Part shown: positions 1 through 20,852 of the stretch, one piece after another
Numbering within the stretch: the stretch's first letter is position 1
Layout: each line of letters begins with the position of its first letter
Origin: an uncultured Desulfospira sp.
GTDB taxonomy: Bacteria > Desulfobacterota > Desulfobacteria > Desulfobacterales > Desulfobacteraceae
Length of the DNA: 64,000 nt
Reading direction: 5' to 3'
Assembly: GCA_963663165.1 (NCBI GenBank)
Contig: OY760175.1
Coordinates: 1,984,001-2,048,000 of the forward strand
Notes under the pieces: model-generated
What the model was told of the DNA's origin: nothing
Database searches by the model: none
What the model saw: the letters and a program-made list of their open reading frames with translations, nothing else
Made by a program: the position numbers and the translations under genes

Positions 1-253
1 CCTTAACGCACCCCATGGCAACGATAAATATAGCAAAAACGGCGGCATAGGCCACCCCGGTCACGGTAAGCCTGCCATGGGCCGCCGTATAGATGAAGCT
101 TGCCGCAAACAGCAGGGTCAGGCAATACCAGGACTGGATAAAAATAATCCCCACAGAGGCCAGAAGGCAGACCGCCATCCGGGTCCTGACATCAAGAGAT
201 CGGACAAAATTGCCGGGTTTCTCGGGCAGATCACTCCCGGATAATACCTGCAT
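1..253 (-). CDS. ECF transporter transmembrane T component, N-terminal part (runs off the window edge)
   Basis: Manual translation from ATG at 253: MQVLSGSDLPEKPGNFVRSLDVRTRMAVCLLASVGIIF... The LDVRTR matches the EcfT LDPRxK motif and is followed by hydrophobic helices. Overlaps the S-component stop. Not in the ORF track. Confidence 0.75.
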   Translation of the reverse strand, partial: MQVLSGSDLPEKPGNFVRSLDVRTRMAVCLLASVGIIFIQSWYCLTLLFAASFIYTAAHGRLTVTGVAYAAVFAIFIVAMGCVK

Positions 254-782
254 GGCGAAGCTCCTTTACAAAAAGAATGCCGGTTCCAAGTCCCATCAGA
301 CAGCCCACATACCCCAGGCCCACCACCACGGCAGCCATGATAAAAAAGCCAAGCTGCTCCCGGTACATCAAATAGGAATACCCAAGGGAAATCCCCCGAG
401 AGAGAAAATCAAACAATGCCACCCCGATGACCAGCACCACGGGGTGTTTAAATCTTCCCGTGGCTGCCATGGCAAGATCGCACAGGCAGCCGGCCAGGAT
501 CACCCCGATAATGGTCATGGGATTGCCGCCCATCAGAATCAGGGAGACCAGGCAGGAAATCAGGGAAAACAGGCTCAAGACCCCGAATTTTCTGACCTTG
601 TAAACCAGGATAATGAGCAGCGATGTGGCCACGGTATTTTTCATCACCAGGGTGACCGGATTCATGCCGCCGCCGGCCAGGGCGATCATCATGGTGGAAA
701 TCTTAATCAGGCCGGCAAAGGTGCCGATGGTGATCAGTTCTCCCGGGGTCCAGTAAGGATGTTTTCTTTTGGGATCAGTCAT
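231..782 (-). CDS. MptD-family putative ECF transporter S component
   Basis: 183 aa, about 5-6 TM helices, ELITIGTF N-terminal and KVRKFG motifs, ends ELRHAGII; sits next to EcfT. Confidence 0.75.
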   Translation of the reverse strand: MTDPKRKHPYWTPGELITIGTFAGLIKISTMMIALAGGGMNPVTLVMKNTVATSLLIILVYKVRKFGVLSLFSLISCLVSLILMGGNPMTIIGVILAGCLCDLAMAATGRFKHPVVLVIGVALFDFLSRGISLGYSYLMYREQLGFFIMAAVVVGLGYVGCLMGLGTGILFVKELRHAGIIRE

Positions 783-2164
783 TTGACAATCTCTTTATAA
801 AAATCGATCATGCCCTGGGCAAGGTTGGTCTGCCAGAATTCTCCGGCCCGGGTCAGGGTCATCCACCCCTTGGAAAGGCTAACCAGGCCGGCCTGTTCCC
901 ACTGGGAAACCAGGGGCCTGAATACGGATTCCATATCCATGTCCAACGGGGCCCCGGCGGTTTTAAGGTTAATCCGGCCCATTTCAAGTTCCCCTGCCAC
1001 AATCCGGATCAGCGGCTCGGTTTCATCAGGCTTCATCATATGAACTAAGGGTTTTTCCCACCCTGCACGGTCCAGATATTTTTTTAAATTGCCTTCCAGA
1101 AAATAGCCGTACCCGTTCATAAATCCACCGGCCCCGGACCCGAAGCCTAAGCAGTCGGTCTTGGCCTTCATGAACCGGTTGTACAGATTCCTTTCCCTGA
1201 AGGTCCGCCCCCAGTGGTCAATGGATAGACGCCGGTACCGGGCCTGTTCCATAATAGCTCCCCCCCTTTCAAACATGGCGGCCCGCATGGGGCGGTCTGC
1301 CACCGGCGGCACCTTTTGGTCGGCAATGGCCCGGTCCAGTTTTCCGCCGGGAAACCGGATGAGCTGGTAAAGGTCCACCCCGTCAATTTCAAGGCCCATA
1401 AAGGTGTCAAGGTCCTTTTCCCAGGTCTCCATGGTCTGGCCGGGCAGTCCGTAAATCAGGTCAATGATGACGGCGGCCTGGTCCGTGGCCTTAAGGGCGT
1501 TTAAACAGGCGATGATCTCCCTGATCCCCTGAATGCGGCCCACGCTTTGGCGGATTTTGGTATCAAAGGTCTGGACTCCGATGGAAAACCGGTTGGCCCC
1601 GCCGTCGATACAGGCGGCTATCTTGTCCTCACCAAAGCCGAACACCCGGCCTTCCACGGTAATCTCGCAGTCATTGGCCAGGGGCAGATACTGCCTGGCA
1701 GCTTGCAGAACCTTTTTAAGGTCCCGGGTAGACAAGGCCGTCGGGGTCCCCCCGCCCAGGTAGACCGCATGAACAGGCCAGGAATTCACCATGGGCGAAT
1801 CCGATGCGGCCGCCATCTCCTTAACCAGCGCATCCACATAGGCGTTCTGGTTTTCCTCATTTGCCGGGTTGCCGAAAAAACCGCAGTACAGGCACCGGGT
1901 TTCGCAAAACGGGATATGGATATAAGCGGTGGTTTTCCCCCGCCGGGGGGTTTGAGCCAGGGCCTGCCAGACCCGCGGCCGTTCCTCTTCCGGAACTGGC
2001 TTGCCGCCAAGCCCCGCATGGACAACCGCTTTTCTGGCAAAGGCATCGGCCATGGGGGTATCGCTGATCCGGGCAAAATAAGGCCGCTGTGCCGAATCCT
2101 GGCCAAAGGATTCCATGAGCTTCATTTTGGAATCGACACTGCTGTGGGATACATCCTTTTTCAT
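779..2164 (-). CDS. hutW: HutW/ChuW-like anaerobic heme-degradation radical SAM enzyme (HemN-like class C)
   Basis: YIHIPFCETRCLYCGF (CxxxCxxC), AVYLGGGTPT, LPLANDCEITVEGR, NRFSIGVQTF, ERNLYN, LTRAGEFW. Confidence 0.85.
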   Translation of the reverse strand: MKKDVSHSSVDSKMKLMESFGQDSAQRPYFARISDTPMADAFARKAVVHAGLGGKPVPEEERPRVWQALAQTPRRGKTTAYIHIPFCETRCLYCGFFGNPANEENQNAYVDALVKEMAAASDSPMVNSWPVHAVYLGGGTPTALSTRDLKKVLQAARQYLPLANDCEITVEGRVFGFGEDKIAACIDGGANRFSIGVQTFDTKIRQSVGRIQGIREIIACLNALKATDQAAVIIDLIYGLPGQTMETWEKDLDTFMGLEIDGVDLYQLIRFPGGKLDRAIADQKVPPVADRPMRAAMFERGGAIMEQARYRRLSIDHWGRTFRERNLYNRFMKAKTDCLGFGSGAGGFMNGYGYFLEGNLKKYLDRAGWEKPLVHMMKPDETEPLIRIVAGELEMGRINLKTAGAPLDMDMESVFRPLVSQWEQAGLVSLSKGWMTLTRAGEFWQTNLAQGMIDFYKEIVK

Positions 2165-2246
2165 AATATTTTCTTTAGCTCCTTATGCCCAACCGGGTGT
2201 ATAAGAGAGGCGCCTTTTTTAGTGATGGCTTATTACCTTGATTAAA

Positions 2247-2266
2247 AAGTTTAATAGCTCAAACTT
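2247..2266. promoter_or_regulatory. Putative DtxR-family operator over the hutW promoter
   Basis: AAGTTTA-ATAGCT-CAAACTT. Minus-strand TTGACA at 2274-2279 with a TATTAA -10 at 17-bp spacing inside the palindrome. Confidence 0.6.
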
Positions 2267-2303
2267 TTTGGGGTGTCAACCCCATTTCATTACAATTTTC
2301 CTG

Positions 2304-3047
2304 TCAGGGAGTTGCAGGCAGGGGAATTTGCGTTTCAACGTGAACGTCATCAATCAAAGCAGCTAATCCAGTCACACTGGACAGCTTTACATAGATGGTT
2401 TCCGGATTATCATTGAACCTGATTTGGGCAACGGCCCGGCACCAATGGCCGGACCCGCCGCCACCGACATTTCCCACTGTGGTCACACATACGGCAATGC
2501 CGTTTATATCCGCAATCTGGGTACCGTCATATGACCTTCCGACCCGGATGGCACAATTATCTTTTTCAAAACTCGAATAATAAGTCCATTGAATCCGGGC
2601 CAAAGTCGGCCCTGCTTTTTCAGGGGAAAGCGGCTGGGGAATCTTAAACCATAAACTGGTTTCGCCCATGCCGCCGTAATATCCGCTTCTGCTCCATTTT
2701 CCCACCATGGGATACCAGCGCCAGCCGCCAAGCCCGATTTTGGAGCATTTGGCACGAATCATCAGGGGCTGTCCCCCGGAATTGACCCAGTTACCGCCAT
2801 CGGGCAAAAGGGGGATCTTTGGTGCCACTGGATCAGGATCACCGGATTGAGGCGGAACATGGAGTGCCTCAGCATTAGCGGCATTAAACCCCCAGCTCTG
2901 GCAGGTGGTTAACCCGGGATGCCCGCTGCTGCTGCAATCAGCATGGCCGGAAGATAGCGTGTCCCAGGCCTGCCCAAGGATGACAGCAACGAAGACGACG
3001 GCCAACATTCTAAAATGTTCAAATTTTTTTATTAGCATAGAATTCAT
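2304..3047 (-). CDS. Hypothetical exported protein, Cys/Trp/Gly-rich
   Basis: 247 aa ORF with an N-terminal hydrophobic signal-like segment; no family recognised. Confidence 0.6.
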   Translation of the reverse strand: MNSMLIKKFEHFRMLAVVFVAVILGQAWDTLSSGHADCSSSGHPGLTTCQSWGFNAANAEALHVPPQSGDPDPVAPKIPLLPDGGNWVNSGGQPLMIRAKCSKIGLGGWRWYPMVGKWSRSGYYGGMGETSLWFKIPQPLSPEKAGPTLARIQWTYYSSFEKDNCAIRVGRSYDGTQIADINGIAVCVTTVGNVGGGGSGHWCRAVAQIRFNDNPETIYVKLSSVTGLAALIDDVHVETQIPLPATP

Positions 3048-3063
3048 AATAAAACTAAAAACA

Positions 3064-3245: not shown

Positions 3246-4951
3246 TCAGGCCTTAAAGAACCGAAACCCTTTATTTCCTGCGACATATATCAAAATGGCC
3301 GTTATTGTAAAATCGGGAAAAACTTTTAAGCACTCTTTTTTATATCCTTGCACCTGTTCCAGATCTTTTTTGGGCGGGGCTTTCATCGATAATATGGTAT
3401 CGGCGTACTGCCCCCGGCCGTACTTGAACTCAATAATGGTTCTGGTGTCCTTGTATTGTGTGTGGTATTTGCCGGTCATTTCCCAGTCGCTCCGGCCCGA
3501 CGGGTAGTTGACTTCCATGGAAAAGGTAAAATACCGGGACAGATAACGGGTGCAAAGCTCGTAAAACGCGCACCGGACAAAATTTTCATTTATCTTGTCC
3601 CAGGCCTGGGCCGGGAACTGCCCAAGGTAGGTGTCATAGAACCCTGAAAACAGAGCTTCCATATCAAGGTCGGCCAGAAATGTTCTAAAAAATTGGGTAT
3701 AGCCTTTGGAGACTTCCAGGTTATTTAATTCATTGTAATAATCAACAAAAATTTCGCGCAGGGTATTATTGGGAAGACACATGCTAAAATCATCAAAACA
3801 GGTGACCATGCCAAGATAAAACAAAGATACCGGATAATAGTCCTTTTCAAAAAACTGCCGCATATTGAATTTTGAAACCAATTGCTTAAGATCGTATTCA
3901 AGGCTGTTGTCAAACACCAGGGCATCCATCATGGCATCGGTGTTTTCCTTCACCGTGGTCAACCGCTCTATCCAGGACACATCGGTTTTCAGATTATCGT
4001 CAATCAGTTCTCTGGGGATTTCACCATTATTTAAAGCAAAATTTTTTAAAAAATAAGTAACAATGGTGGAATTATAAAGGGTATCTGCCACATCCGGCAA
4101 AAAACGGTAACCGTCATAATGATTTTTCATGATTCCAAGTATTTCAGGCATACGGACAGGATCAAACCCATAAGACTCAAACACATTGCCAAGGTATTTT
4201 TTGGTTTCTTCGTGGGTAAAACCCAGCATATTTACCAATTGTTTTTTTAACGTCACTATCTCGGCAATATTAAATCCTGAAGTTAAATCATCAATGGTAA
4301 TGGGCAGAACACCGGTGATAAACACCTTGCCGATGCTCTGCATTTCAATGCCGGACTTTATGACTTTGAAAAAGGAACGTAAAAAGGAATCCCCGCAGGT
4401 CAGTTCCTTGTACAGGTCGTCGTTGCGGGTGGTGATCAACTGATTGGTGAAGTTATCGTACTCGTCGATAATGATGTAAATCGGCGCAAGGTTGCGGTCT
4501 TTTACCATGGACAGGATCTGCTTGAGACGGACGGCCAGGGCCTGGTCCTTGTTCATATCACTGTCCTTGAAATATTTATTGTAGGAATGAAGGAAGGAGC
4601 CCAGTGATGCGCCCTGGGTAAGGTTGAAATTTTCCTCAATTATGCCAAGATCCGGTTTCACCGGCACTTCGGAAAAATTTAGGCGCAGCACTATAAAGCT
4701 GTTTTTAAGCGGGGTCGGGTTTTGCCCGATCCAGGTGTTTCCAAAAAGCGGTGGAAATTTATCCTTGCGGTTGATATCGTAATAACATTCAAGTGTGGAA
4801 CACCAAAGGCTTTTGCCGAAACGCCGGGGACGCAAAAAACCGGTGCCTTCCAATTTTCAAGGGCGGCAATGTGCCGGGTTTTATCTACATAGTAATATCC
4901 TTGTTCCTGTATTTCTTCAAAGCTGCCGACAGCATAGGGTATCTTTTTCAT
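3246..4951 (-). pseudogene. AAA-ATPase-like + PD-(D/E)XK nuclease protein, frameshifted near 4835-4840
   Basis: MKKIPYAVGSFEEIQEQGYYYVDKT...APVF in one frame continues as LRPRRFGKSL (Walker A), IIIDEYD (Walker B) and GRSD...IIEFK in another. One T is missing from a T6 run. May be a sequencing error. Confidence 0.8.
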
Positions 4952-5162: not shown

Positions 5163-5990
5163 CTATTTTCTTGTTCGTCTCAACCCGGCCAGGCCCACAA
5201 GACCTGCGCCCAGCAAGAAAAAGGTGCCAGGCACGGGAACCGAACTTACTGCGGTTGTTGAAATATAAGGTGCAGTGGCACCCTCACGGTCAAAGCTTGC
5301 ATAAACGCTGCCGCACTCTGCCGCTGTGGCAAAAAGCTCCGTCGCATAGGCGTTGGCTAGTTCTTCGTCTTCTTGCAGACTGTCAAAAAACGCCTGGGTA
5401 AGTTCCGGTATCCAGCCGTCATATACATACCCGCTGGCAAGAACAATACCGTTGTTGCTGTCCGGATCAAGAACCCAGCTATTGTACAGATCGGTAATGT
5501 CTAAACTATAAGTGCCGTTGGCTGTCATGGTCAGGCTTGATATAGCGGATTGCGTCAGCAGGGTATTTTTAAGATCTACGACGTTGGCATCATCTCCGTA
5601 GGCTGTCAGTGTCTCCACATCAACATCACCGGGATCATAAACGTCCAGATATGCCGGCAGATCTGCAGTTGTAGCAGGCGGATTGCCGCCGGTCATTGAC
5701 CCTGTTCCTAAAAGGTCGATGACCAGATATGCCGATTCAACGGTCTCAGTTGCCAGAACATTAAATTTCACCCAGCTATAACCCCACATATCTTCGTCTC
5801 CGCCAAACACCTCAAGGGCTGACACTACAAAGTAATCCTTGGAGTCGTCCGGATAAGTAGTATAGGACCCCTGACCACTCATATAGGTGTACCCGGTCAT
5901 TATACTCTCGCCAATAACTTCGGCAGATGCGGTGCCGGTAAATATCATTCCAATCATTGCCAGTGCGATAAACATGTTTTTAAATTTCAT
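5163..5990 (-). CDS. PEP-CTERM (VPVPG) surface protein with the shared YxYM/GSM domain
   Basis: Signal peptide (..TASA), C-terminal VPVPGTFFLLGAGLVGLAGLRRTRK; paralog of 8182 and 11442. Start refined to MKFKN at 5990. Confidence 0.9.
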   Translation of the reverse strand: MKFKNMFIALAMIGMIFTGTASAEVIGESIMTGYTYMSGQGSYTTYPDDSKDYFVVSALEVFGGDEDMWGYSWVKFNVLATETVESAYLVIDLLGTGSMTGGNPPATTADLPAYLDVYDPGDVDVETLTAYGDDANVVDLKNTLLTQSAISSLTMTANGTYSLDITDLYNSWVLDPDSNNGIVLASGYVYDGWIPELTQAFFDSLQEDEELANAYATELFATAAECGSVYASFDREGATAPYISTTAVSSVPVPGTFFLLGAGLVGLAGLRRTRK

Positions 5991-6234
5991 TTTTCTTTTT
6001 CCTTTAATTCTTAATAGTTGCATGTCATTTTTCCTTAATTTTTCTTAATTCATTGTCTTTTTCTTATTGCCGTACTTCATTTTGAGTGAAAGCTTTAGAT
6101 ATCACCTCCTTTAAAAAAGCTGTTAGCTGTCAGCGCTTAGCCGTTAGCCGGCCGAAATGGCCTGCATGCTGAAGGCCGACAACTTTCATTATCCGGTTCG
6201 CCCATGGGAAGATGGGCAACACCGGCCATTTTTT

Positions 6235-7833
6235 TTAAGCCTCTTTTTCCCGATTCTCTTCCCGGGATCGGGTCACCATCCCGTAATAATCGATCAGGGC
6301 CTGGGCCAGGTTGACCTGCCAGAACTGCCCGGCCAGGGTCAGGCTGATCCATCCGTCTTTCATTTCAATTAACCCGGCCTGTTCCCACTGGGTCAGCAAG
6401 GGCCTGAACAATTCGGTGATATCGGGCCTGAACTGCCTTTCTAAGTTGGCAAGGTTCAGGTGGCCGGCCTCCAGCTCACCGGTGATCCGGTTGATCAGGG
6501 GTTTAAATTCGGGATAGGCCAGCATGGAGGCCACAGGCTTTACCCCGGATTCAATTGCTGCCGTATATTTGTCCAGGCGGCTTTCCAGATGGCCGGCATA
6601 CCCGCCTAAACTTCCCCCGGCACAGGAGCCGAACGCCAGACAGGGCGAGCCCTCTTTCATCAGCAGGTTGTAGATATTGCGCTCCCGGGTACCCCGGCAC
6701 CAGTGGGTCATGGAAAGCCTTCGAAACCGGGCCTGGTCCATAAGTTCCACCCCTCTTTTAAACATCCAGGCCTGTTCCGGGATATCGGCCGGATACGGCA
6801 GCTTCCCTTTTTCTGCAGCCAGGTCCAGGGGGCCGCCCGCAAAAATGTTCAACTGATAAAGATCTGCCCCGTCAATGTTCAGCTCAATAAGGGTCTTTAA
6901 ATCCTTTTCCCATACGGTCATGTTCTGGCCCGGCAGACCGTAGATCAGGTCAATGACAATGACGGCGGCATTGGTGTCCCGGGCCCGGGACAGGGTTTTG
7001 ACAACCGTATCCTGATCGCTTCTTCTCCCCAGGCTTTTCCGGATAGCCGTATCAAAACTTTGCACCCCGATGGAAAACCGGTTGGCCCCGCCTTCAAGGC
7101 AGGCCGCCAGTGTGGCCTCATCCAAATCGGCAATGGTGCTTTCCACGGTGATTTCGCAATCATTTGCCAGGGGCAACCGGTTTCGGATCTCTTTTAAAAG
7201 CCGTTCAAGGTCCCGGGGCTCCAGGGCCGTTGGGGTGCCCCCGCCCAGGTAGACCGCGTGGATGGGATAATCTGCCACGGCCGGCCGGGCCTGGTCCAAA
7301 CTCATCTCTTTGATCACCGCATCGGTATAGGACGGACTGGATATTTTGCTCAAAGGGTTGACAAAAAAGCCGCAGTACAGGCAATGGCCCCGGCAAAAGG
7401 GAATATGGAAATAGGCGGCCGAACTCTGGCTGCGGGGGGTGCCCATCAGCTCGTCCCATAAGTCATTAATCTTTGATTTTTCCACGGGCTCTCCGCCCAT
7501 GCCGGCATGCACGGTGGTTTTCCTTGAAAAGGCATGGGTTAAGGGGTCCACCCCTTCCCTGGCAAAAAAATCCCGTTCGTCTTCCCGGGCCAGGCTTGAG
7601 GACTGCCTGTCCAGTTGGCCTTTATTTTGTCCGGTCTTTAGCGGGGCCTTGAAATGGTCCCGGTTCCCGGCACCCATCATGGAGGCCTTGGCCCGTTTCA
7701 GATAGGTTAAATCAATGATGTTCCGGTTTTCCGAACGGGCCCGGGACTCAATCCCTTTTTTAACCGTTCTCCGGATAAATCCCGGAACCTGTTCAAAATA
7801 CTCCTGGGCATCACTTGTCCATTGCATGGTCAT
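6235..7833 (-). CDS. hutW: Second HutW/ChuW-like radical SAM enzyme with an N-terminal PCP_red-like helical domain
   Basis: YFHIPFCRGHCLYCGF, AVYLGGGTPT, ANDCEITVE. The N-terminus WTSDAQEYFEQVPGFIRRTVKKGIESRA resembles the BchB/ChlB C-terminal PCP_red domain. Confidence 0.85.
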   Translation of the reverse strand: MTMQWTSDAQEYFEQVPGFIRRTVKKGIESRARSENRNIIDLTYLKRAKASMMGAGNRDHFKAPLKTGQNKGQLDRQSSSLAREDERDFFAREGVDPLTHAFSRKTTVHAGMGGEPVEKSKINDLWDELMGTPRSQSSAAYFHIPFCRGHCLYCGFFVNPLSKISSPSYTDAVIKEMSLDQARPAVADYPIHAVYLGGGTPTALEPRDLERLLKEIRNRLPLANDCEITVESTIADLDEATLAACLEGGANRFSIGVQSFDTAIRKSLGRRSDQDTVVKTLSRARDTNAAVIVIDLIYGLPGQNMTVWEKDLKTLIELNIDGADLYQLNIFAGGPLDLAAEKGKLPYPADIPEQAWMFKRGVELMDQARFRRLSMTHWCRGTRERNIYNLLMKEGSPCLAFGSCAGGSLGGYAGHLESRLDKYTAAIESGVKPVASMLAYPEFKPLINRITGELEAGHLNLANLERQFRPDITELFRPLLTQWEQAGLIEMKDGWISLTLAGQFWQVNLAQALIDYYGMVTRSREENREKEA

Positions 7834-7942: not shown

Positions 7943-7983
7943 AAAAAAACAGCCGGGTTCCCTGTTTGAGGCAACCCGGCTGT
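7943..7983 (-). terminator. Intrinsic terminator acting as riboswitch expression platform
   Basis: ACAGCCGGGTT...AACCCGGCTGT followed by a U-run; the left arm is the aptamer 3' strand. Confidence 0.75.
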
Positions 7984-8045
7984 CCTGTAAGGATCCGCGG
8001 CTTTCCGTCCCCCGGTTTCCCGGGGTTTGGCTTTTTCGGTTTGTG
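7965..8045 (-). ncRNA. Cyclic-di-GMP-I (GEMM-I) riboswitch
   Basis: Minus strand AAAGCCAAACCCCGG-GAAA-CCGGGGGACGGAAAGCCGCGGATCCTTACAGGACAGCCGGGTTGCC: GNRA-capped P2, GACG-GAAAG core, AGCCGGGTTGCC 3' end. Confidence 0.85.
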
Positions 8046-8181: not shown

Positions 8182-8979
8182 TTAGTGTCTTGCCCGTCTC
8201 AATCCCGCAAGCCCCGCAAGGCCACATCCGAGCAGCATCAGGGTACCGGGAACTGGAACTGTTGATGAAATATACGGCGCGCTGCCGTTTTCGTTGCCAA
8301 AACTGGCATAAACGCTGCCGCTTTCTGAAGCGATGAGAAGCATCTCTGTTAACAGGGCGTTGTATTCTTCATCGGTAAGACTGTCTATATACTCCTGGGT
8401 AATATCTTTTATATAGCCTTCATAGTTATACCCGCTGGCAAGAATGATACCGTTGTTGCTGTCAGGATCAAGAATCCAGCTGTTGTACAGATCGGTAATG
8501 TCTAAGTAATAGGTGCCGTTGGATGTCATGGTCAGGCTTGACAGAGCGGTTTGCGTCAACAGGGTATCCCTGAGAGCTGAAACGGTGTCTTTATCCAATG
8601 TTTCCACATCAACATCGCCGGGATCATAAAGGTCCAAAGAGGCAACAAGCTCTTCGGTTGTTGCCTCGGGATTGCCGAAGCTCATAGCACCTACACCCAA
8701 AAGGTCGAGAACCAGATATGCCGATTCAACAGTCTCGGTCTCAGTCACTTCAAATTTCAGCCAGCTATAGCCCCACATATCGCTGTCCCCGCCAAACAGT
8801 TCAAGGGCGGTTGCCACAAAGTAATCTTTGGAGGATTCCGGATACGTCGTTGTGGCACCCAGGCCACCCATATAGGTGTACCCGGTTAATTCACACGTAC
8901 CAATAACTTCGGCGGATGCGGTGCCGGTAATTACCATTGAAAATAAAGCCAGTGCCATGAGAATTCTTTTAATATTCAT
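8182..8979 (-). CDS. PEP-CTERM surface protein with the shared YxYM/GAM domain
   Basis: Signal peptide; TGYTYMGG, DMWGY, GVGAM, DITDLYNSW...NNGIIL; tail VPVPGTLMLLGCGLAGLAGLRRARH. Confidence 0.9.
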   Translation of the reverse strand: MNIKRILMALALFSMVITGTASAEVIGTCELTGYTYMGGLGATTTYPESSKDYFVATALELFGGDSDMWGYSWLKFEVTETETVESAYLVLDLLGVGAMSFGNPEATTEELVASLDLYDPGDVDVETLDKDTVSALRDTLLTQTALSSLTMTSNGTYYLDITDLYNSWILDPDSNNGIILASGYNYEGYIKDITQEYIDSLTDEEYNALLTEMLLIASESGSVYASFGNENGSAPYISSTVPVPGTLMLLGCGLAGLAGLRRARH

Positions 8980-9905: not shown

Positions 9906-9986
9906 GGCTTTCTCCATTTTTAAATTAAATAAAAATAACTACTAAAGGGGGGGGGGCATGACTCATGGTTTGCCCCCTTCTTGTTT

Positions 9987-12329: not shown

Positions 12330-13082
12330 TTAATTGATTTTAGTTATTTTTCTGCGCCGCAGACCGGCCAAAGCCGCAAGACCCGAGCCCAGCAGCAGAA
12401 CCGCCCCTGGAATCGGTACGGAAGAGACTGAAACTTGTCCGTTGCGAAGGGCTATAGCACCGACACCGGAGACACCGTCCTTGGTGTAGCAGCCCTGGCC
12501 GCCGGTGGGCATCCTAAAGAGAAAGGCACTATCGGAATCATAAATTGCAGCCTCCGTCCCTGTCCAGTACCACCCATAGCTATCTAAATTTTCAAAATCT
12601 CCTGTTTCGTTCAGCCCGTATTCGCCTCTGGAAAGACGATTACCTGAGGTATCCTGCAATCCCAGGTTGCCCAGTTCCTCATAAAAGAGATGGCCCAACT
12701 CGGAAGTGATGATATTATACCCTAACGTGGTGGTACCATCATATCCGGATTTCAGGGTGCCATCCACAGTGGTTGGCAGCCGCCAGGACGACCCACCCCA
12801 GTCCACGGTATATCCATCATAAAGGATAATGGTCAAAACACCTTCTTCATTCAGGCTTGATGCCCAGGCAACCTGGTCGTCCCAGGTTGAAGCATCATTA
12901 TCATAATCCAGCCACACCACTGAATTGCCATTGTTGTCATCATCCCAGATAAGCTTGTACTCTGATCCGTTGTAAGTAGCCGTGCCGATAGTGGTCAAAG
13001 CGGCGTAGGCCGAAGGAGCAAATCCCAGAGCGACGGCCAGCAGGGCCATGGTGAATGCCATCATAATTTTTCTTAATTTCAT
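12330..13082 (-). CDS. PEP-CTERM surface protein with a DUF1566/Lcl-like domain
   Basis: WRLPT and SELGHLFYEELG motifs, WYWTGT; tail VPIPGAVLLLGSGLAALAGLRRRK. Confidence 0.85.
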   Translation of the reverse strand: MKLRKIMMAFTMALLAVALGFAPSAYAALTTIGTATYNGSEYKLIWDDDNNGNSVVWLDYDNDASTWDDQVAWASSLNEEGVLTIILYDGYTVDWGGSSWRLPTTVDGTLKSGYDGTTTLGYNIITSELGHLFYEELGNLGLQDTSGNRLSRGEYGLNETGDFENLDSYGWYWTGTEAAIYDSDSAFLFRMPTGGQGCYTKDGVSGVGAIALRNGQVSVSSVPIPGAVLLLGSGLAALAGLRRRKITKIN

Positions 13083-13563: not shown

Positions 13564-14328
13564 TTAACTTCTGCGGCGCAGGCCCACCAGGCCCACCAGG
13601 CCGCATCCGAGCAGCATCATGGTGCCGGGAACGGGAACGGCGCTGGTGGTTTCAATATAAAGAGCCGTGGTGCCGTTAAGGCTGTTACCGGTTTTGCCTA
13701 CACCAGTGAGGCCTGAGAAAACAGCACCGACAGCGCCCACTGCACCGCTGGCTTCATTTGAATTGGGGCTGGCACATACCAGGACAAGACCATTGTTTTC
13801 GATCTCGCCTGAAACCCAGGCATTGTAAATATCTGTAATGTCGATGCCCCAAACGCCGTTTGAGGTCATGGTGGCGGTAGTCAGCAGAGAGGTCGTTCCG
13901 GTACTGGAGTCTGCCAGATCCGCATAAAGAGTTGAAATGGTTGAAGAGGTAAGGTCTGCCACATCCGTGTCACCCGGTGAATAGATATCCAGAACTGCCG
14001 GATAATCTACCGTGGCATCAGTATAGTTCATGCTGCCCACAGCCAGCAGTTCCAGATACAGAACCGCACTGTCCACGGTTTCAGTACCAATATCGCTGAA
14101 TTTAATGGTGGCATAGCCCCACATATTTGTACCGGCGTATTCATATTCCAGGGGACCGGCGATAAAATAATTATCTTCCGAAGTTTGGAATTGCCCTCCC
14201 ATATATGCATAGGAGGTAGAGCTTGCACTGTAAGTATCAGCCAGAGCCGTACCGGCAAAAGCAAATACACTGAACATCAGTGCAATGGCCAATACAATGG
14301 CATTCTTTCTTAATTTCATTTTTCTCAT
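13564..14328 (-). CDS. PEP-CTERM surface protein with the shared YxYM/GSM domain
   Basis: YAYMGG, NMWGY, AVGSM, IDITDIYNAWV..NNGLVL; tail VPVPGTMMLLGCGLVGLVGLRRRS. Confidence 0.9.
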   Translation of the reverse strand: MRKMKLRKNAIVLAIALMFSVFAFAGTALADTYSASSTSYAYMGGQFQTSEDNYFIAGPLEYEYAGTNMWGYATIKFSDIGTETVDSAVLYLELLAVGSMNYTDATVDYPAVLDIYSPGDTDVADLTSSTISTLYADLADSSTGTTSLLTTATMTSNGVWGIDITDIYNAWVSGEIENNGLVLVCASPNSNEASGAVGAVGAVFSGLTGVGKTGNSLNGTTALYIETTSAVPVPGTMMLLGCGLVGLVGLRRRS

Positions 14329-14511: not shown

Positions 14512-17500
14512 TTAACGGAACAGGCTGTTGATAAAACAGCCGCCGCCCACGCTCTCATCCGGGGTGCTTGCCGTCGCTTCAACTGCGGTGCCGCTCACGG
14601 TCCCGTACACTGAGCAATGATCAGTGGTAAAGGTCACGGTCTGATTTGCCTCATCCACCGAGACGATATTATCCAGGTAGATCTCTTCAATGTCGGCATC
14701 CTCGTCCCCTGAGAAAAAGGTTTCCAGGTCAGGGGCATGGACAATTCTCCAGGACCCCAGGGTGAAGGGGTCATCGGATCCGGCCGCACTGGCGTCATAG
14801 GAGATGGTGATCTCAATCTCCAGAATGTCGGCATCATCCAGAGGCTCCCCGTTTTCATCGTAAAGCTCAAATAAAAACAGGCCGGTGGCACCCCCGGGAC
14901 TTGTGCTGCCGGTGTCCACCACCATCACATAGATCTTTCCGACTGTGGTTGAGACACTGTTGGCCGTAATGGTGATGGTAACGGGGTCCCCTGAAATCGT
15001 ATCAAAATAGATCTCTTTGGAGCCGGTCAGGCCGGCAGGATCATCAATGGCGGTGATCAGCATTTTGGCGCCGTCTTCTCCGGCGGTCCCGCCGATCTGG
15101 GTTGAGTCGTCGCCTTGGGCCATTTCAATACAGACAAAGCTGCCGAAACCGCCCAACTGCTCTAAGGCATCCGTGCAGATGCCGGTGAGCCGCTCTTTTT
15201 CTTCATCCGTGGTACCGGCCGGCAGGTAAAGGGGGGCCTGAGACGTGCCGGACTCCTCTCCGATACCAATATAGATCCGGTCATCTTCGCTGCCGCAGGT
15301 TACGGTGATGCTGCAAAGCCCGTAGTCATCCGGTGCCGTAAAGGTGACCGTGCTGCCGGTAGTGGCGGACAGGGCCGAAGCTGACACATCAGTGCCGTCA
15401 GGCCCCTCAACTGTCCACTGGTAAGTGCCGGAACCGCCCGAAGCCGTCAGGCTTCTGGTCTCGCCCGGGAGCATGGCCGCCGTGGCATTGACCTGGTCAG
15501 TGATGCGCAGTTTGTCCGTATCATATGTGACCAGCAGGTAAGGAGGATCATCGGCATCCTCCCTTGCCACCAGGTGCCAGCTGTATCCGTCGCCGTAATC
15601 AGCACCGTAAATATCGGTTGAACCGGTCCAGGACTGATCGTCATGGTCTTTGAGTTCCAGGCCGTTGTTCTCCCACTGGCCGTTCAGCCATCCCTTTACG
15701 ATGGGGGCCACATCAACTTTTCCCGTGGAGTAGGAGCCTGTGGTGTGGGTCACCAGGACACTGGGGGCTTCGGGCACATACCAGGGTTTGTTGGTCATAT
15801 CCACATACCCGTCACCGGTCACGGCTTCGGTCCAGTAAAAGTCATCTACGGTATCTCCGGTTTTCTCCTGTGTGTCGGTGGAAAGGGCGTATATAGTACC
15901 GTACATGGCCGTACCGTCCGGGGCCGGGGGCCCCACATCCATCTCACCGGCACTGTAGTCGTCCATGGTGTAAACCAGATATGCGGCTTCAATATCTTCC
16001 GTGGTCAGCCCAAGATCGGTTATGGGGCTTAAGTCAAACCGCATAAGAATCCGGGCATCCACAATGTAAACCGCCCCGGCCTTGAGCTTGTATTCCCCCA
16101 TGGAGGTCCCCTGGGGATACCCCTTGCCGTTGCCCATGCCCCCATACAGCACATAGGTGTCTTCGGACACCTCACAGCGAACCGTGCTGGCCACGAGGGT
16201 GGTGAAACTCCAGGTCACGGCAGATCCTAAGGTGTTGCCGGCAAGATCGGCGGCAGTGGCCGCTATGGTAACGGTATATGAGGTTTGCTCTTCAAACACC
16301 ATATCAGGGATAAAGACCAGAACGCTTTTCCCTTCCCAGGAGAGGCTGCCGTCCACTGCCGGGCTAAGGGTAAACCCGTTCTCAACGGTCTCCTTGTCCA
16401 TGTCTTCACTGAAGGTAACCGTTATCGTATCGGTAACAGCCGCCTCAGCCCCGTCTTCAGGGCTGACAGACAGCACCGTGGGGGGACACTGGATATTCCA
16501 GGTGATATTTTCCAGATCAGACCAGACCCCCAAACTGTCCTGCACCTGGATTTTCAGGGTATGGTCCCCGTCGGTCAGGCTGCTCAGTTCCAGGGTGTCG
16601 GAAGGATCACAGGCATCGCTCCAGTCTCCGTCGTCAAGGCAATACCGATAGGCATACACCCCGGTTCCTGATATGGTCAGGCTTATGGTATCTTTTACAA
16701 TGGCGGTATCAGGGGTTCCTTCAACTTCAGGGTCAGGGGCCACATAGGCCCCGGTGGTGAAGCTGAACGTGTACTCGTTTTCCAGGCTTTTTTCTGCGGC
16801 ACTTTGGGCCCCCGTGCCCATGGTCACGGTATAGGCGGTCTCATGGGTTAACAGATCTGTCGGCGTAAAGGTTACGGCCGTTTCAAGGTCATTCCAGGAA
16901 AAAGTCCCGGTTACCGCAGTCTCGGTACTTGAGCTTAAGACCATGGAAAAGGCCTGTTCCACACTTTCGGTGGCCATGGGCTTGTCAAAGCCAATGGTAA
17001 CCGATGTTCCCACATCAATACCGGTAGCGCTTGCTTCCGGAGTTGTGGTATCGACTGTGGGGGCTGATTCAGGGGCAGAAAACGTAATGTAGGGCATGGT
17101 CCCCAAGGTCCCGTTAAGGCCGGCATATTTGGTTCCCACAGGACCCAGGTTAGAGGCATTGGATGCCCCTGAATTTTCACTGTCGCTCATTAAAACAAGG
17201 CCGTTATTGGCCTGATCGCCCCGCACCCAGGCATTATAGATGTCTGTGATGTCGATGGCATAAGTCCCGTTGGCCGTCATGGTGAAGTCCGAAACAATAG
17301 GGGAAGAGGAGGCCTTAAGGGTTGTGTGCAGGGTGGCAGCGTCGGAAACCGTGGCAAGTGAGGCCACATCCGTATCACCGGGGCTGTATATATCCAGTTT
17401 TCCGGGATACGTTTCACTGGCGTCCTCAAGGTACATGCTGCCCACTTTCAAAAGATCAACGACCAGATAAGCACTTTGTACCTCCTCGGTTCCAATGGTG

Positions 17501-17721
17501 TCAAACTTGATAAAGGCAAACCCCCACATATCGGTCCCGTTGAACATATATGTCATGGGACCTGCGATAAAATAGCTTTGTTCGGAGATATTAAAACCTG
17601 TTCCGCCCATATAGGCATACCCGGTCAGGGTACATGGGTAATCGGCAGATGCGGTATGGGAACAAAACAGGTTCCCGGTCACCAGCACTGCTAAAATTGT
17701 TATGATTCTGATTAACTTCAT
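14512..17721 (-). CDS. Large acidic surface protein: YxYM/GSM domain, SbsA/Big_5 Ig-like repeats, DNRLRE-like domain, GGGCFI C-terminal tail
   Basis: Signal peptide; N-domain homologous to 13564; two PTV..P..GA..V...ITVTFSE.M Ig repeats; DTYV...RILMRFDLS...NNGLEL; ends GGGCFINSLFR. Confidence 0.85.
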   Translation of the reverse strand: MKLIRIITILAVLVTGNLFCSHTASADYPCTLTGYAYMGGTGFNISEQSYFIAGPMTYMFNGTDMWGFAFIKFDTIGTEEVQSAYLVVDLLKVGSMYLEDASETYPGKLDIYSPGDTDVASLATVSDAATLHTTLKASSSPIVSDFTMTANGTYAIDITDIYNAWVRGDQANNGLVLMSDSENSGASNASNLGPVGTKYAGLNGTLGTMPYITFSAPESAPTVDTTTPEASATGIDVGTSVTIGFDKPMATESVEQAFSMVLSSSTETAVTGTFSWNDLETAVTFTPTDLLTHETAYTVTMGTGAQSAAEKSLENEYTFSFTTGAYVAPDPEVEGTPDTAIVKDTISLTISGTGVYAYRYCLDDGDWSDACDPSDTLELSSLTDGDHTLKIQVQDSLGVWSDLENITWNIQCPPTVLSVSPEDGAEAAVTDTITVTFSEDMDKETVENGFTLSPAVDGSLSWEGKSVLVFIPDMVFEEQTSYTVTIAATAADLAGNTLGSAVTWSFTTLVASTVRCEVSEDTYVLYGGMGNGKGYPQGTSMGEYKLKAGAVYIVDARILMRFDLSPITDLGLTTEDIEAAYLVYTMDDYSAGEMDVGPPAPDGTAMYGTIYALSTDTQEKTGDTVDDFYWTEAVTGDGYVDMTNKPWYVPEAPSVLVTHTTGSYSTGKVDVAPIVKGWLNGQWENNGLELKDHDDQSWTGSTDIYGADYGDGYSWHLVAREDADDPPYLLVTYDTDKLRITDQVNATAAMLPGETRSLTASGGSGTYQWTVEGPDGTDVSASALSATTGSTVTFTAPDDYGLCSITVTCGSEDDRIYIGIGEESGTSQAPLYLPAGTTDEEKERLTGICTDALEQLGGFGSFVCIEMAQGDDSTQIGGTAGEDGAKMLITAIDDPAGLTGSKEIYFDTISGDPVTITITANSVSTTVGKIYVMVVDTGSTSPGGATGLFLFELYDENGEPLDDADILEIEITISYDASAAGSDDPFTLGSWRIVHAPDLETFFSGDEDADIEEIYLDNIVSVDEANQTVTFTTDHCSVYGTVSGTAVEATASTPDESVGGGCFINSLFR

Positions 17722-17739: not shown

Positions 17740-19863
17740 TTATAATGCGATCCTCAAACCAGCGTAAAAATAGGCGCCCAGAGGAGAATCGAGCATGCTT
17801 TCCCTGTGGCCGCCCTCATAATCGGCCACATCCACGGGCGGTTCTTCATCAAATATGTTCCGTCCGCCCGCGAATACGCTAACAGACGGGGTCAGGGCAT
17901 AGGTGATCTGGGCATTGAAAAAATCAAAGTACTCGATTTTCAGAGCCGGAGATGTATCGCTTAAGTATTTGCCCCGATAGACATAGCGCAGGTTGGCGGT
18001 CAGCTTGTCCTTATACCGGTAGCTTAAGGTGGCGTGTATCTGGGACCGGGGGCGGTTGGTCAGGTCCTTGCCGTCCGGGTCTGTTGCCTCAAGATAATTG
18101 GCGGTTACATCCAGGTCAAACCCCCATGGAAGGGGCAGGCCTATACCGAGTTCCGCGCCTTTAAAAGTGGATGTCCCTTCCAGATTGATATAGGTGGTCT
18201 CGGTATTGGTATTGGATGTGCCTTCCGTGATGATTTCGGTTTCAATCATATTATCAATGTCGTTGCGGTACATATCAACCGTCAGTTGAAGACCGGCGGG
18301 ACCGAAAGGGGTCCAGACCGCCCCCACATTAAAATTGACCCCTTCCGAAGGCTCAAGGTCGGGATTTCCGTAGATATCGTTCCAGCCCATGGCACCAATG
18401 AAATTGTCATGAAGCTGATAAAGGGTCGGGGCCTGGAAAGAGCTTGAAGCAGAGGCCCGGAACGCCAGGTTCTCAGACCATTCGTACCGGGCGGAAATTT
18501 TGGGGGCCAGGTTGGTTCCGAAATCGGAATATTCCTCCACACGTCCGGACAAGGTCACGGTCAGCCGGGTGAAAAGTGTTATGCGGGTTTCACCAAACAG
18601 GGCGTATACATTCCGTTCCTCGACAAAGTCCCGGTATGGGGCATCCACATTTTCCCGGTTAAAGCCGGCCCCCAGGAAAAACGTTAACCAGGGCTTATAA
18701 TCCCAGTTCATATGGGCGTAAATATCCTGGGTATCGGACGTCAGATCGCCGTTATAATCCGGATCTTCGCTCTGGCGGTACTCGGTATCGGACAGGCCGA
18801 GTCCTAAGCCGGATTTAACCCGGAACGTATTAAACTCCCCTTCCCAGGTCAGCCCGCCGTAATAATCTTCCTTTTTGCTCTCACGGTCCTTGTTCAAATC
18901 ACCGGTTACCCCGACGCGCATCACTGAGTCTGTCAGGTTATACCGCAGTTCACCATCCAGGGTCTGGGTGGGGCTGATGTCATAAGATCCGTTGATGTTG
19001 GCCCCGGACTGTTCCACTTCCGGGGATGTCCAGCGCGGGTTGTCCGGGGTGCGGTCATAATGCTGGCTTTCCCGGCTGTTTGCACTGATATTGACAAATC
19101 CTTTTTCACCCACAGCAAACCCGGTGGAAACTTCACCTTTCTTTTCTTCACCATCCCCATGGATGGAACCGCCGGACTGAATGCTGGCGGTAAAAGGCCG
19201 GTTATACTTGCGCAATACAATATTAATTACACCGGCCACAGCGTCAGCTCCGTATTGGGCGGATGCACCGTCCCGGAGAACTTCGATACGCTCAATGTCG
19301 CTGATGTTGATGCCGCTGATATCAGTAAAGGCGAATCCGTCCTTATCCGGCCGGGTGCCGGGCTGGCGACGGCCGTTGATAAGGACCAGCACATGGTTGG
19401 CGTCCATACCCCGCATGCGAAGGGTCTGGACGCCGGGGGTGGCATTCATGTCCGGGCACTGGACCAGTTCAACCCCCTGAAGCACCTCTATGGCCTGGTT
19501 TAAGGAAACCGCACCGATCTCCTGTAAATCTTCGCTGGTGACAATCTGGACCGGCACGGCCATTTTTTCAGGGGTTTCAGTGCCGGTACGGGACCCGGTG
19601 ACCACAACGGTTTCCATCTGGTAAACCGAACTGCCTTTTTGCTGCAGGCCGGATACATCCTGTTGTACAATATCTGAAGCATTTTCTTCCGACAGGGCCG
19701 GTACCTGCCCATGCACCTTTATCGAAGACCATTCCTCTGCGGGGGCATCAGAAAATCTCAGGCATAAAAAAAGGATGGCTGCCATTGCCGAAAGCCTCGA
19801 TATGCCCCCCCCCGGGATGCACAAACAGCTGCCCTGCCTGCCCGTTTTTTCAAACCAATTCAA
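17740..19863 (-). CDS. TonB-dependent outer-membrane receptor (heme/cobalamin-like class)
   Basis: TonB box ETVVVTG, plug IERIEVLRDGASAQYGADAVAGVINI, FQAP...GNPDLEP motifs with His and Met between them, C-terminal beta strand YAGLRIAL. Confidence 0.92.
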   Translation of the reverse strand: MNWFEKTGRQGSCLCIPGGGISRLSAMAAILFLCLRFSDAPAEEWSSIKVHGQVPALSEENASDIVQQDVSGLQQKGSSVYQMETVVVTGSRTGTETPEKMAVPVQIVTSEDLQEIGAVSLNQAIEVLQGVELVQCPDMNATPGVQTLRMRGMDANHVLVLINGRRQPGTRPDKDGFAFTDISGINISDIERIEVLRDGASAQYGADAVAGVINIVLRKYNRPFTASIQSGGSIHGDGEEKKGEVSTGFAVGEKGFVNISANSRESQHYDRTPDNPRWTSPEVEQSGANINGSYDISPTQTLDGELRYNLTDSVMRVGVTGDLNKDRESKKEDYYGGLTWEGEFNTFRVKSGLGLGLSDTEYRQSEDPDYNGDLTSDTQDIYAHMNWDYKPWLTFFLGAGFNRENVDAPYRDFVEERNVYALFGETRITLFTRLTVTLSGRVEEYSDFGTNLAPKISARYEWSENLAFRASASSSFQAPTLYQLHDNFIGAMGWNDIYGNPDLEPSEGVNFNVGAVWTPFGPAGLQLTVDMYRNDIDNMIETEIITEGTSNTNTETTYINLEGTSTFKGAELGIGLPLPWGFDLDVTANYLEATDPDGKDLTNRPRSQIHATLSYRYKDKLTANLRYVYRGKYLSDTSPALKIEYFDFFNAQITYALTPSVSVFAGGRNIFDEEPPVDVADYEGGHRESMLDSPLGAYFYAGLRIAL

Positions 19864-20024
19864 CGGATCACTCCTGTTCGAACCGTATGGGCCTTCACGG
19901 TCATTGTTTTATTCCGGGTTTCAGTTAATTTTTTCGTCATTAAGCACAAAAACAAGACCCTTTCCTCCTCATCTCATTTGTTAACAGAAAAAATATTAGT
20001 TTTAACTACACTTATTAGTTTATA

Positions 20025-20044
20025 AAGTTCGTATGTTCGAACTT
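20025..20044. promoter_or_regulatory. Putative DtxR-family operator in the receptor/dtxR divergent promoter
   Basis: AAGTTCG-TATGTT-CGAACTT. Minus-strand TTGACA at 20063-20068 with its -10 region overlapping the palindrome. Confidence 0.7.
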
Positions 20045-20378
20045 ATTTTTTATTTACTTATTTGTCAAGAACAAATTTCACTAAAATTATGTTTTTTACC
20101 CCCTACCCCTCCCTCCACCCCATCCTGGCCACCACCCCCTTACACCGCCCTGTCAGCACAAAAATTTACCTTGCCTTTTGTCACCACATTATTAATACTC
20201 TGCTCACCCAAGGCGGACAGCACTGCTCAACCACCAGACAACCCCGCAGAATGATCCGGCCCTAAACCCGCCTGATGATTTAATCATCCGGTACCGGCCG
20301 CCAACAGGGGCGGCAATTTTCATCAGCCGACACTGGAATCACGCAAACAAACCGCCACATTGTGACCCGGGAGGAAAA

Positions 20379-20852
20379 ATGAAGAATCAATACCCGCCGT
20401 TAACCCCTACTCAGGAAGACTACCTGGCCGCTATTTTCAGACTGGCCCAAAAAACCGGCGAGGCCCGTTCTAATGCCATTGCGAACACGCTGGGGGTATC
20501 AAAATCCACTGTACCGGCAGCCCTCAAATCCCTGGCCGCCAGAGAACTGATCGTCTACGAGCCCTACAGCCCCATCCGCCTGACACCCAAAGGCTATGAA
20601 ACCGGCAAACGGATTGCCCACAGAAACTTTATCCTCAACGAATTTTTTGTAAAAGTCCTTCAACTGCCTGAACAGGAGGCCAGAAACACCGCCTGCCGGG
20701 TGGAGCATGCCGTCAGCGACGACACAGTCCTTGACCTGGGCCGTTTCATTTTCTTCCTGAAAGAATCCCGGGTTGATCTGACAAACTGGAAAGAAAAATA
20801 CAAGATCCCCAAAGACCATGCATTTGAACTCAACCCTTTTTCTGATCTTTAA
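20379..20852 (+). CDS. DtxR/MntR-family metal-dependent transcriptional repressor (no FeoA domain)
   Basis: LTPTQEDYLAAIF, HTH LGVSKSTV, IRLTPKG, ACRVEHAVS metal site. Confidence 0.92.
   Translation: MKNQYPPLTPTQEDYLAAIFRLAQKTGEARSNAIANTLGVSKSTVPAALKSLAARELIVYEPYSPIRLTPKGYETGKRIAHRNFILNEFFVKVLQLPEQEARNTACRVEHAVSDDTVLDLGRFIFFLKESRVDLTNWKEKYKIPKDHAFELNPFSDL

Follow-up and report, generated by a model that had tools for sequence, protein, structure and literature searches.

The window analysed here is a 64,000-nucleotide stretch of the genome of an uncultured Desulfospira sp. (assembly GCA_963663165.1, contig OY760175.1, positions 1,984,001 to 2,048,000). Near its left end, genes for a TonB-dependent receptor (TBDR), a 1069-amino-acid (aa) surface protein and eight PEP-CTERM proteins stand beside two hutW genes and an energy-coupling factor (ECF) transporter. 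We consider it highly probable that this is a heme-iron locus. We also favour, with less assurance, a more specific reading, in which the cluster serves heme import and oxygen-free iron release and a protein family that we call family A catches heme outside the cell by means of two methionines. The core is the known hutW–hmuF heme-degradation unit; the new part is family A, which is narrower than first claimed. The original prediction had proposed a panel of PEP-CTERM proteins for heme capture; of the eight, four are members of heme-linked families, as are the 1069-aa protein and a 247-aa exported protein, and the other four are not. We therefore suggest family A as a candidate hemophore family that can be tested.

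The heme-degradation core

Both HutW proteins scored above the cut-off (400) of the TIGR04107 model, with 520.6 bits for HutW2 and 510.9 bits for HutW1; each has a single CxxxCxxC radical S-adenosylmethionine (SAM) motif, and the two are 51% identical. The unit extends beyond the left edge of the window, with the ECF T component, a dual ATPase, an HmuF-like flavodoxin and a PNPOx-fold protein, and the position of the hmuF-like gene, after hutW2 and then the ECF S, T and A genes, is that of an hmuW-type uptake cluster. The flavodoxin had Fusobacterium FldH (8G64) as its sole PDB match at E≤1e-5 (E 3.4e-23), and its helical-cap His134 and Ala147/His150/Pro151/Asp155 (A-x-x-H-P-x-x-x-D) were in register with HmuF/FldH. 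The alanine, histidine, proline and aspartate residues are named as conserved in HmuF (PMC10404700). The ECF S component was recognised by the Pfam model Trep_Strep (PF09605, 34.9 against a cut-off of 28.7) and fell under the cut-off of TIGR02185 (21.5 against 76.45). A DUF3450-exbB-exbB-exbD-tonB set lies about 14 kb to the left of the window. The predicted pathway of heme import and anaerobic degradation is supported, and its control by a DtxR-family protein is likely.

HutW above the cut-off was found in 21 of the 161 genomes of the family. Nine other hutW loci were inspected (G018, G013 and L043–L049), seven of which have a TonB receptor, of another type (22–29% identity), seven the ECF set, seven HmuF and one a ChuX homolog. 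PEP-CTERM genes were absent from all nine, and hutW, ECF and hmuF therefore form the common unit, to which the PEP-CTERM array is an accessory add-on. HmuF-like flavodoxins also occur in two longer open reading frames (ORFs): one, in G013:C1 at ~3469966–3472470 (the L011–L012 junction), shares its reading frame with a TonB-dependent receptor (834 aa) and represents either a fusion or a lost stop; in the other (L030:16755–18827), a single open frame spans the ECF dual ATPase and the flavodoxin.

Residues and predicted fold of family A

Family A comprises pep1, pep3, pep7, pep8 and the N-terminus of the 1069-aa protein, and is confined to the window locus within its own genome. It carries the motifs T[GS]Y[TA]YM.G, WG....KF and G.G.M. 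A profile search over 1.84 billion representatives yielded 69 matches, 29 of them at E≤1e-10. In an alignment of 33 matches with pep1, from which long proteins with the C-terminal motif only, fragments and three multi-domain members were omitted, Met43 was kept in 29 of the 34 rows and Met100 in 25, counts that lean upward because the profile was built from Met-bearing queries. The five domains in the window are acidic and have zero or one histidine each. As heme ligands, Met43 and Met100 are no more than candidates, and a conserved Met pair is unusual for carbohydrate binding.

The AlphaFold2 model of pep1 (pLDDT 81.5) matched 8WAB (Z 14.2, root-mean-square deviation [rmsd] 3.4, 171 residues aligned) and 7VBO (Z 12.0, rmsd 3.5, 169 aligned), with 14% identity in both cases. 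The Atlas feature search agreed on CBM96 (0.92), and with the DNRLRE model NF033679 (cut-off 34) the four small proteins scored 24–30 bits and the two-domain large protein 36.4. There were no Pfam or NCBIfam matches to HmuY, HasA or NEAT, and none of these appeared among the fold matches listed, which favour CBM96. We know of no hemophore with a CBM96 jelly roll. In Met–Met HmuY proteins, heme binding is best when conditions are reducing (PMC12106395), a preference that, by analogy, suits an anaerobe. The chances that family A binds heme seem to us evenly balanced.

Neighbourhoods of family A

Pattern scans identified 17 genome loci with family A (16 from Planctomycetota and one, L025, from Desulfospira) and six metagenome loci; L039 and L040 were excluded as near-duplicates of L021 and L023, leaving 21 loci, which were tallied by hand. 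Pfam scans of related loci covered selected ORFs (75 and 55). A heme-dedicated gene (ChaN, HutW or HutW-like, HmuF or HmuS) lay within 10 kb of family A at 10 of the 21 loci, and any iron or uptake marker at 18, the other markers being DtxR, Fur, FeoB, FldA-type flavodoxin, PepSY-TM, CbiX-like, MptD-ECF and TBDR. The marker-free loci were L023 and two contigs under 4 kb. The original prediction had named homologs that are never near metal or heme genes as the finding that would speak against it, and the heme-dedicated genes at these 10 loci show the opposite.

ChaN was present in eight of the 16 planctomycete loci and a CbiX-like gene in five, never both in one locus. ChaN was single-copy in nine of the 10 genomes tested, mostly picked because ChaN had already been observed there, and it adjoined family A in eight of those nine; five of the genomes in this test have 30–150 PEP-CTERM matches each (E≤10). 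The CbiX-like gene was single-copy in all five genomes tested for it. The chance of such proximity (≤10 kb) is 0.3–0.6% per genome. In the Desulfospira genome itself, none of the 76 other PEP-CTERM genes lies within 10 kb of hutW, ECF-S, ChaN, DtxR or FeoB. HutW matches were absent from five genomes of the CbiX type or without markers, which are incomplete.

One planctomycete locus, L029, has the order dtxR, family A, 509-aa exported protein, prepilin-like protein, ChaN, membrane protein, MotA/ExbB, DUF2149 and HmuS-like protein; the last of these scored 1217 bits to HmuS (9D26) versus 344 to CobN. The tail of this locus matches the back half of hmuYRSTUV (PMC12583661), and neither HmuY nor a receptor was seen in L029. 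Family A thus accompanies two unrelated iron-release routes, HutW and HmuS. At L029:14241–20320 a planctomycete carries DUF2149 and MotA/ExbB genes together with the gene for an HmuS-type dechelatase; the main text of the HmuS paper nowhere uses the word Planctomycetes.

At three loci (L027:5600–7588, L028:14204–16186 and L030:13970–16072) a HutW-like domain and an MptD/Trep_Strep ECF S component form one fusion protein, which hints at degradation coupled to import. These domains scored 287–305 bits on TIGR04107, which is under the cut-off and nevertheless their best match; the HutW of L020 passed the cut-off. No receptor match was found in the 16 planctomycete loci, in which DUF1559 or prepilin-like genes are common, and these loci offer concrete material for probing the role of DUF1559/prepilin-like proteins. 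One reading of the protein of about 500 aa encoded in Sedimentisphaerales loci, as a barrel of the outer membrane, was discarded, since the protein resembles dockerin/CBM96 exported proteins. The CbiX-like genes (L019, L021, L022, L032 and L035), single-copy and apparently exported, occupy the place of ChaN beside family A, and their products are candidate periplasmic tetrapyrrole binders or dechelatases.

The receptor, the large surface protein and associated proteases

The receptor scored below the cut-offs of both TonB heme models (105.5 of 316.85 bits for TIGR01785 and 92.7 of 323.75 for TIGR01786), of the BtuB model TIGR01779 (163.6 of 599.7 bits) and of the siderophore models. It forms its own subfamily (36 matches at E≤1e-100), in which M492 and H686 were invariant in 24 of 24 aligned receptors and His485 varies. 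M492 lies between FRAP-like and NPNL-like motifs, in the loop that in TonB heme receptors presumably carries the histidine heme ligand. In all five receptor loci that the analysis covered (the window, G001, L036, L038 and L042) it is followed by a large protein with immunoglobulin (Ig) domains and at least one PEP-CTERM gene. Among 400 other genomes sampled from the order, one has the receptor.

The likeness of the receptor to BtuB, its best model, raises the possibility that receptor and surface proteins form a module that imports a different tetrapyrrole (corrinoid, siroheme or F430) or a metal such as cobalt or nickel and that came to lie next to an ordinary hutW unit by insertion. Consistent with this, the heme unit is followed, after a 294-nt gap left of the PNPOx gene, by a DUF4198-cbiM-nikL-cbiQ-cbiO set (L001:11042–14657), a nickel/cobalt ECF that is kept in G001; CbiX-like genes accompany family A in five of the 16 planctomycete loci; the two HutW paralogs share 51% identity and might act on different substrates; and in G608 hutW and the receptor are on different contigs. 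However, a search of 83 kb gave no cobalamin riboswitch at the Rfam gathering score, in G001 hutW separates the receptor gene from that of the large surface protein, receptor and hutW are preceded by an identical type of palindrome, and the recurrent ChaN and HmuS are heme proteins. We consider such a module highly unlikely. A second DUF4198 gene, also downstream of the heme unit, lies at L001:8389–9285.

The 1069-aa protein consists of a family A domain (aa ~27–213), Big_5 Ig domains and a second DNRLRE-type domain, domain B (aa 513–735), relatives of which occur at four further loci besides the large proteins of the G001 type. Its GGGCFI tail scored 11.9 bits on the CFI-box model (cut-off 15.9). 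To the right of dtxR, at 21093–23224, are genes for a HEAT-repeat membrane protein and a CPBP/Rce1-like protease, which are kept in G001 and weakly resemble the JDVT/Synerg myxosortases; all myxosortase models were under the cut-off, and the pair could process the GGGCFI tail.

Papain- or subtilisin-type proteases were found at three of the five receptor loci and at L037; they adjoin family A in G001, L036 and L037, and the receptor in G608. By analogy with the gingipains that assist HmuY (PMC10100897), such proteases could free heme from proteins. A conserved papain-family protease with a beta-propeller and a dockerin-like end is encoded in the surface-protein arrays at L009:8839–11988, L036:12551–15703, L037:11770–14916 and L050:2030–5158, and is 68% identical among G001, L036 and L037.

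Regulation

The DtxR-family protein contains the Fe_dep_repress and Fe_dep_repr_C domains, both over the cut-off, and keeps D14, C106, E109 and H110. It has A17 and N84 where Bacillus subtilis MntR has Glu and His, which we take to be the metal ligands Glu11 and His77. A close ortholog was identified in three of the 161 genomes, each time at a hutW operon bearing the palindrome AAGTTYG-N6-YRAAYTT; G018 has the palindrome without a close ortholog. In the window, the promoters of the receptor gene and hutW2 each have a copy of the palindrome over the −10 region that follows TTGACA, and the exact pattern has 11 matches in the genome, three of them in the locus. Further copies are found in G001 at the promoter of the receptor gene, in G018 and G499 on the 5' side of hutW, and in planctomycete L022 between divergent dtxR and the family A operon. 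The palindrome occurred in a plausible promoter in two of 23 family A loci (L022 and L025) and at the hutW promoter in one of seven hutW loci, and was absent from G013; the scattered matches of L027 and L028 were put down to chance. The third copy of the window was not seen at the equivalent place in G001, and a weight-matrix ranking of the three copies is circular. The palindrome is a likely candidate for the DtxR operator.

A c-di-GMP-I-GGC riboswitch match (65.7 bits, gathering score 59) lies 5' of hutW1 and leads into a hairpin that, with its U run, resembles a terminator (fold z −3.9). The genome has eight matches to this riboswitch, three over the cut-off; five of the eight precede PEP-CTERM genes (three) or genes for other apparently exported proteins (two). 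These matches, among them the one in the window and those at G000:C1 3624426, 5287814, 6484991, 3356335 and 3708651, are a lead for the regulon of this variant. Because gaps reach 481 nt, a riboswitch and terminator are internal and a second operator candidate precedes hutW2, a single transcript for the whole locus appears unlikely.

Composition of the PEP-CTERM array

A search for the PEP-CTERM motif returned 84 genes in the genome, a few of them likely false, in 57 clusters, of which the window cluster of eight is the largest; others have three to five genes. Four of the eight tails were over the Pfam PEP-CTERM cut-off and the others scored 14.8–19.9 bits on PEP-CTERM or VPDSG-CTERM models; these four are tripartite by eye, and the array proteins bear a signal peptide and a PxP/hydrophobic/basic tail. 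The genome has three exosortase-family genes (PF09721, over the cut-off). In the tree, pep3, pep7 and pep8 grouped together (100/100) and pep1 grouped with the domain of the 1069-aa protein (97/93), a topology consistent with local duplication of family A.

Two of the four non-family PEP-CTERM genes are 44–58% identical to paralogs at other sites of the genome, which lie away from the iron markers tested; the remaining two have no paralog outside the array. Leaders and tails are alike at the DNA level across the array (tails 61–83%), and one gene reads through into a second, degenerate tail, which suggests that the array may have been shuffled by recombination between conserved leaders and tails. 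The four non-family genes are likely to be passengers gathered in this way. The 247-aa protein was linked by hhalign (probability 97, E 1.3e-10) and a GGMG motif to family C, a second family of exported proteins with a Met motif, which occurs at related loci; a word search retrieved its own record as the sole match. It stops right after IPLP, without membrane helix and basic tail, and looks like a PEP-CTERM protein truncated before the membrane helix.

The counterpart locus in G001 has the same flanks on either side and retains DtxR, ECF, HmuF, the receptor (67%), hutW1 (79%) and the large protein (51%). Its array has three PEP-CTERM genes (one of family A) and a papain-type protease, and at the corresponding place there is no hutW2, AAA gene or 247-aa gene. 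This difference in content, the other PEP-CTERM clusters of the genome and the presence of the same riboswitch type 5' of PEP-CTERM genes elsewhere would be expected if the array were an ordinary biofilm or exopolysaccharide (EPS) surface cluster that had come by accident to lie in a heme locus, and accidental placement fits the four non-family genes. Family A, by contrast, is restricted to this locus in its own genome and lies beside heme genes in two phyla, and the neighbourhood counts largely refute accidental placement for it. As an account of the array as a whole, we regard the accident as extremely unlikely.

Weighing heme capture by family A

Several observations weigh against heme capture. 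The best solved matches of the predicted fold bind chondroitin sulfate (8WAB) and alginate (7VBO). Eleven of the 21 family A loci are without a heme-dedicated gene, five of these with a CbiX-like, chelatase-fold gene, and in L036–L038, long receptor- or FeoB-type metagenome loci, hutW was not seen within the available stretch. The 21 loci, which span two phyla and several planctomycete groups, are partly kin and do not represent 21 independent events. Family A occurs in two of the 161 genomes of the family versus 21 for HutW, it was not found in 400 further genomes sampled across the phylum, and the nine other hutW loci do without PEP-CTERM genes. The four non-family PEP-CTERM genes had no match among the ORFs of the related loci compared, and no heme link was found for them. 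The best model of the receptor, BtuB, is far under its cut-off, and heme receptors score lower still. As for regulation, the Ala and Asn substitutions are present in all three close DtxR orthologs, so that two canonical metal ligands are gone, and the palindrome with one mismatch allowed has 124 matches in the genome, so only promoter position counts.

Some of these points would be accommodated if family A belonged to an iron-starvation regulon without binding heme, and instead bound polysaccharide, iron minerals or the debris of proteins. It would then bring the cell, or the proteases of the cell, to a substrate rich in heme or iron. The relatives of the CBM96/DNRLRE fold bind polysaccharide, the domains are very acidic, proteases lie beside family A (G001, L036 and L037) or the receptor (G608), and FeoB, flavodoxin and Fur/DtxR as neighbours indicate a general connection with iron. 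However, the two conserved methionines would, as far as we know, be unusual for carbohydrate binding, heme-specific partners (ChaN, HutW, HmuF and HmuS) recur, and a PEP-CTERM exoprotein that binds the scavenged nutrient directly is already known in ZepA (PMC10957091). We consider this explanation rather unlikely and retain heme capture by family A as the preferred reading.

A possible pathway

On the preferred reading, metal shortage would lift the DtxR-family repressor off the palindromes of the receptor and hutW2, for which motif and co-occurrence were observed and binding and the metal are supposed. Sec would export the family A domains and exosortase would cleave them; with the Ig-stalked 1069-aa protein, they might bind Fe(II) heme from the hemoproteins of other cells. 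The receptor would then move heme to the periplasm with the TonB/ExbBD proteins encoded about 14 kb to the left, and the MptD-type ECF transporter would, to judge from its context, import it. HutW, to whose family both proteins belong, would open the ring to give anaerobilin and Fe2+, and HmuF would deliver heme and reduce the HutW product, following the chemistry described in PMC10404700.

A wider proposal, which we advance tentatively and think somewhat improbable, is that families A, B and C form a new class of hemophores: exosortase-processed proteins of CBM96 fold in which a pair of methionines holds Fe(II) heme and which feed a dedicated receptor in free-living Desulfobacterota, and a prepilin-like/DUF1559 and ChaN route in Planctomycetota, with no TonB receptor in the locus, ending in HutW (often ECF S-fused) or HmuS. 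Should family A bind heme, its fold would be a new one for this function, PEP-CTERM proteins would gain, after ZepA, a second role in scavenging nutrients, and sulfate reducers and planctomycetes would recycle the heme iron of other cells; hemophores are, among the literature matches listed, mainly from host-associated microbes.

Comparison with known systems

The hmuTRUVWF locus of Fusobacterium nucleatum (HmuW and HmuF), Escherichia coli ChuW and Vibrio HutW combine a HutW-type protein, an HmuF-type protein and a receptor in one uptake locus, as here (PMC10404700). The window locus differs from hmuTRUVWF in having an MptD-type ECF transporter rather than HmuTUV for the inner-membrane step and two HutW proteins (one with PCP_red); its regulator belongs to the DtxR family, and it encodes an array of exported proteins.

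The Anabaena protein ZepA (All3515) resembles family A as an exoprotein with a signal peptide and PEP-CTERM, distributed sporadically over distant phyla, including the PVC group (Planctomycetes, Verrucomicrobia and Chlamydiae), near TonB-dependent transporters (TBDTs), PEP-CTERM genes and a metal regulator; it binds zinc, aids its uptake and is released into the medium (PMC10957091). The concept of PEP-CTERM proteins as metal scavengers is thus not categorically new, having been described for zinc. By its description, ZepA is His-liganded, zinc-specific and Zur-controlled, whereas family A has almost no histidine, conserves methionines and is associated with heme genes and DtxR.

HmuY, encoded in hmuYRSTUV of Bacteroidota, is an exported protein heading a heme locus, as family A is in L029 with HmuS, DUF2149 and MotA/ExbB. 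The likeness extends to a candidate Met–Met ligation, which in HmuY favours reducing conditions (PMC12106395), and to the proteases at some family A loci, with gingipains in the case of HmuY (PMC10100897). HmuY is, however, a lipoprotein, whereas family A has a predicted CBM96-like jelly roll with a PEP-CTERM tail and matched no HmuY model or structure. The CBM96/DNRLRE proteins 7VBO and 8WAB share the predicted fold (Z 12–14), with weak matches to the DNRLRE hidden Markov model (HMM), and differ in that CBM96 is a module of a polysaccharide lyase, whereas family A is a stand-alone PEP-CTERM protein with Met motifs, a heme context and 14% identity.

The tripartite tail and signal peptides of the PEP-CTERM/exosortase system are common to the array, and the genome has exosortase-family genes; most PEP-CTERM proteins were without an assigned function in that description, and the original proposal tied them to EPS, with the words heme and TonB absent from the text of that paper (PMC1569441). 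Among the literature matches listed (the best 25 of 691 and the best 20 of 522, subscription journals and supplements lying beyond them), there was no link between PEP-CTERM proteins and heme capture and no heme-linked, Met-conserving PEP-CTERM family of CBM96 fold.

Layout of the locus and minor observations

The genome is a single 6.74-Mb contig. By ORF and family scans, all genes of the window locus are on the minus strand, with dtxR divergent, and every gene named in the original prediction was found in the order claimed (Table 1).

Table 1. Features of the heme-iron locus and of the adjoining unit to the left of the window
Feature	Position	Strand	Remarks
DtxR/MntR-family repressor	20379..20852	+	subfamily of hutW operons
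Palindrome copy 1, likely DtxR operator (candidate)	20025..20044	.	AAGTTCG-N6-CGAACTT
Palindrome copy 3	20958..20977	.	3' of dtxR, 5' of HEAT-repeat membrane gene
TonB-dependent receptor, distinct subfamily	17740..19863	-	HMM and alignment
1069-aa exported protein	14512..17721	-	family A, Big_5, domain B, GGGCFI tail
pep1, PEP-CTERM, family A	13564..14328	-	modelled CBM96/DNRLRE jelly roll
PEP-CTERM protein, weak Lcl_C match, no heme link found	12330..13082	-	2 paralogs elsewhere in genome
pep3, PEP-CTERM, family A	11442..12302	-	motif/profile
PEP-CTERM protein, no family	10837..11361	-	likely start 11361, ORF open to 11493; weak likeness to 9243-9917
PEP-CTERM protein, 2 paralogs elsewhere	9987..10718	-	reads through into second degenerate tail
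PEP-CTERM protein, no family	9243..9917	-	family scans
pep7, PEP-CTERM, family A	8182..8979	-	motif/profile
c-di-GMP-I-GGC riboswitch match and terminator-like hairpin	7945..8040	-	riboswitch part 7966-8040
hutW1, HutW/ChuW radical SAM methyltransferase 1	6235..7833	-	TIGR04107; N-terminal PCP_red domain
pep8, PEP-CTERM, family A	5163..5990	-	ORF open to 6023
AAA-ATPase/PD-(D/E)XK gene, low GC	3246..4951	-	frameshifted near 4845; passenger insertion
247-aa exported protein, family C (GGMG)	2304..3047	-	ends at IPLP, no membrane helix
Palindrome copy 2	2247..2266	.	over TTGACA promoter of hutW2-ECF-hmuF
hutW2, HutW/ChuW radical SAM methyltransferase 2	779..2164	-	TIGR04107
ECF S component, MptD/Trep_Strep-like	231..782	-	Pfam over cut-off
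ECF T component, 5' part	1..253	-	gene continues leftward out of window
ECF dual ATPase	L001:16101-17519, left of window		adjoining unit
HmuF-like flavodoxin	L001:15485-15994, left of window		adjoining unit
PNPOx-fold protein	L001:14951-15463, left of window		adjoining unit

Short-read contigs from the same sample, which do not constitute independent support, matched the window with zero differences over their pieces, and the array is therefore not an obvious assembly artefact. The frameshift of the AAA gene sits in a T run and is present in the short-read contigs too. Short heptamer repeats (GCTAACA/TTAGCTG), partly inverted, occur between genes at 6118–6166, 7847–7940 and 14436–14461, and the loose ends of contigs suggest that they are a dispersed genomic repeat. 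A tRNA gene (Rfam RF00005) lies at 27076–27148 of the window.

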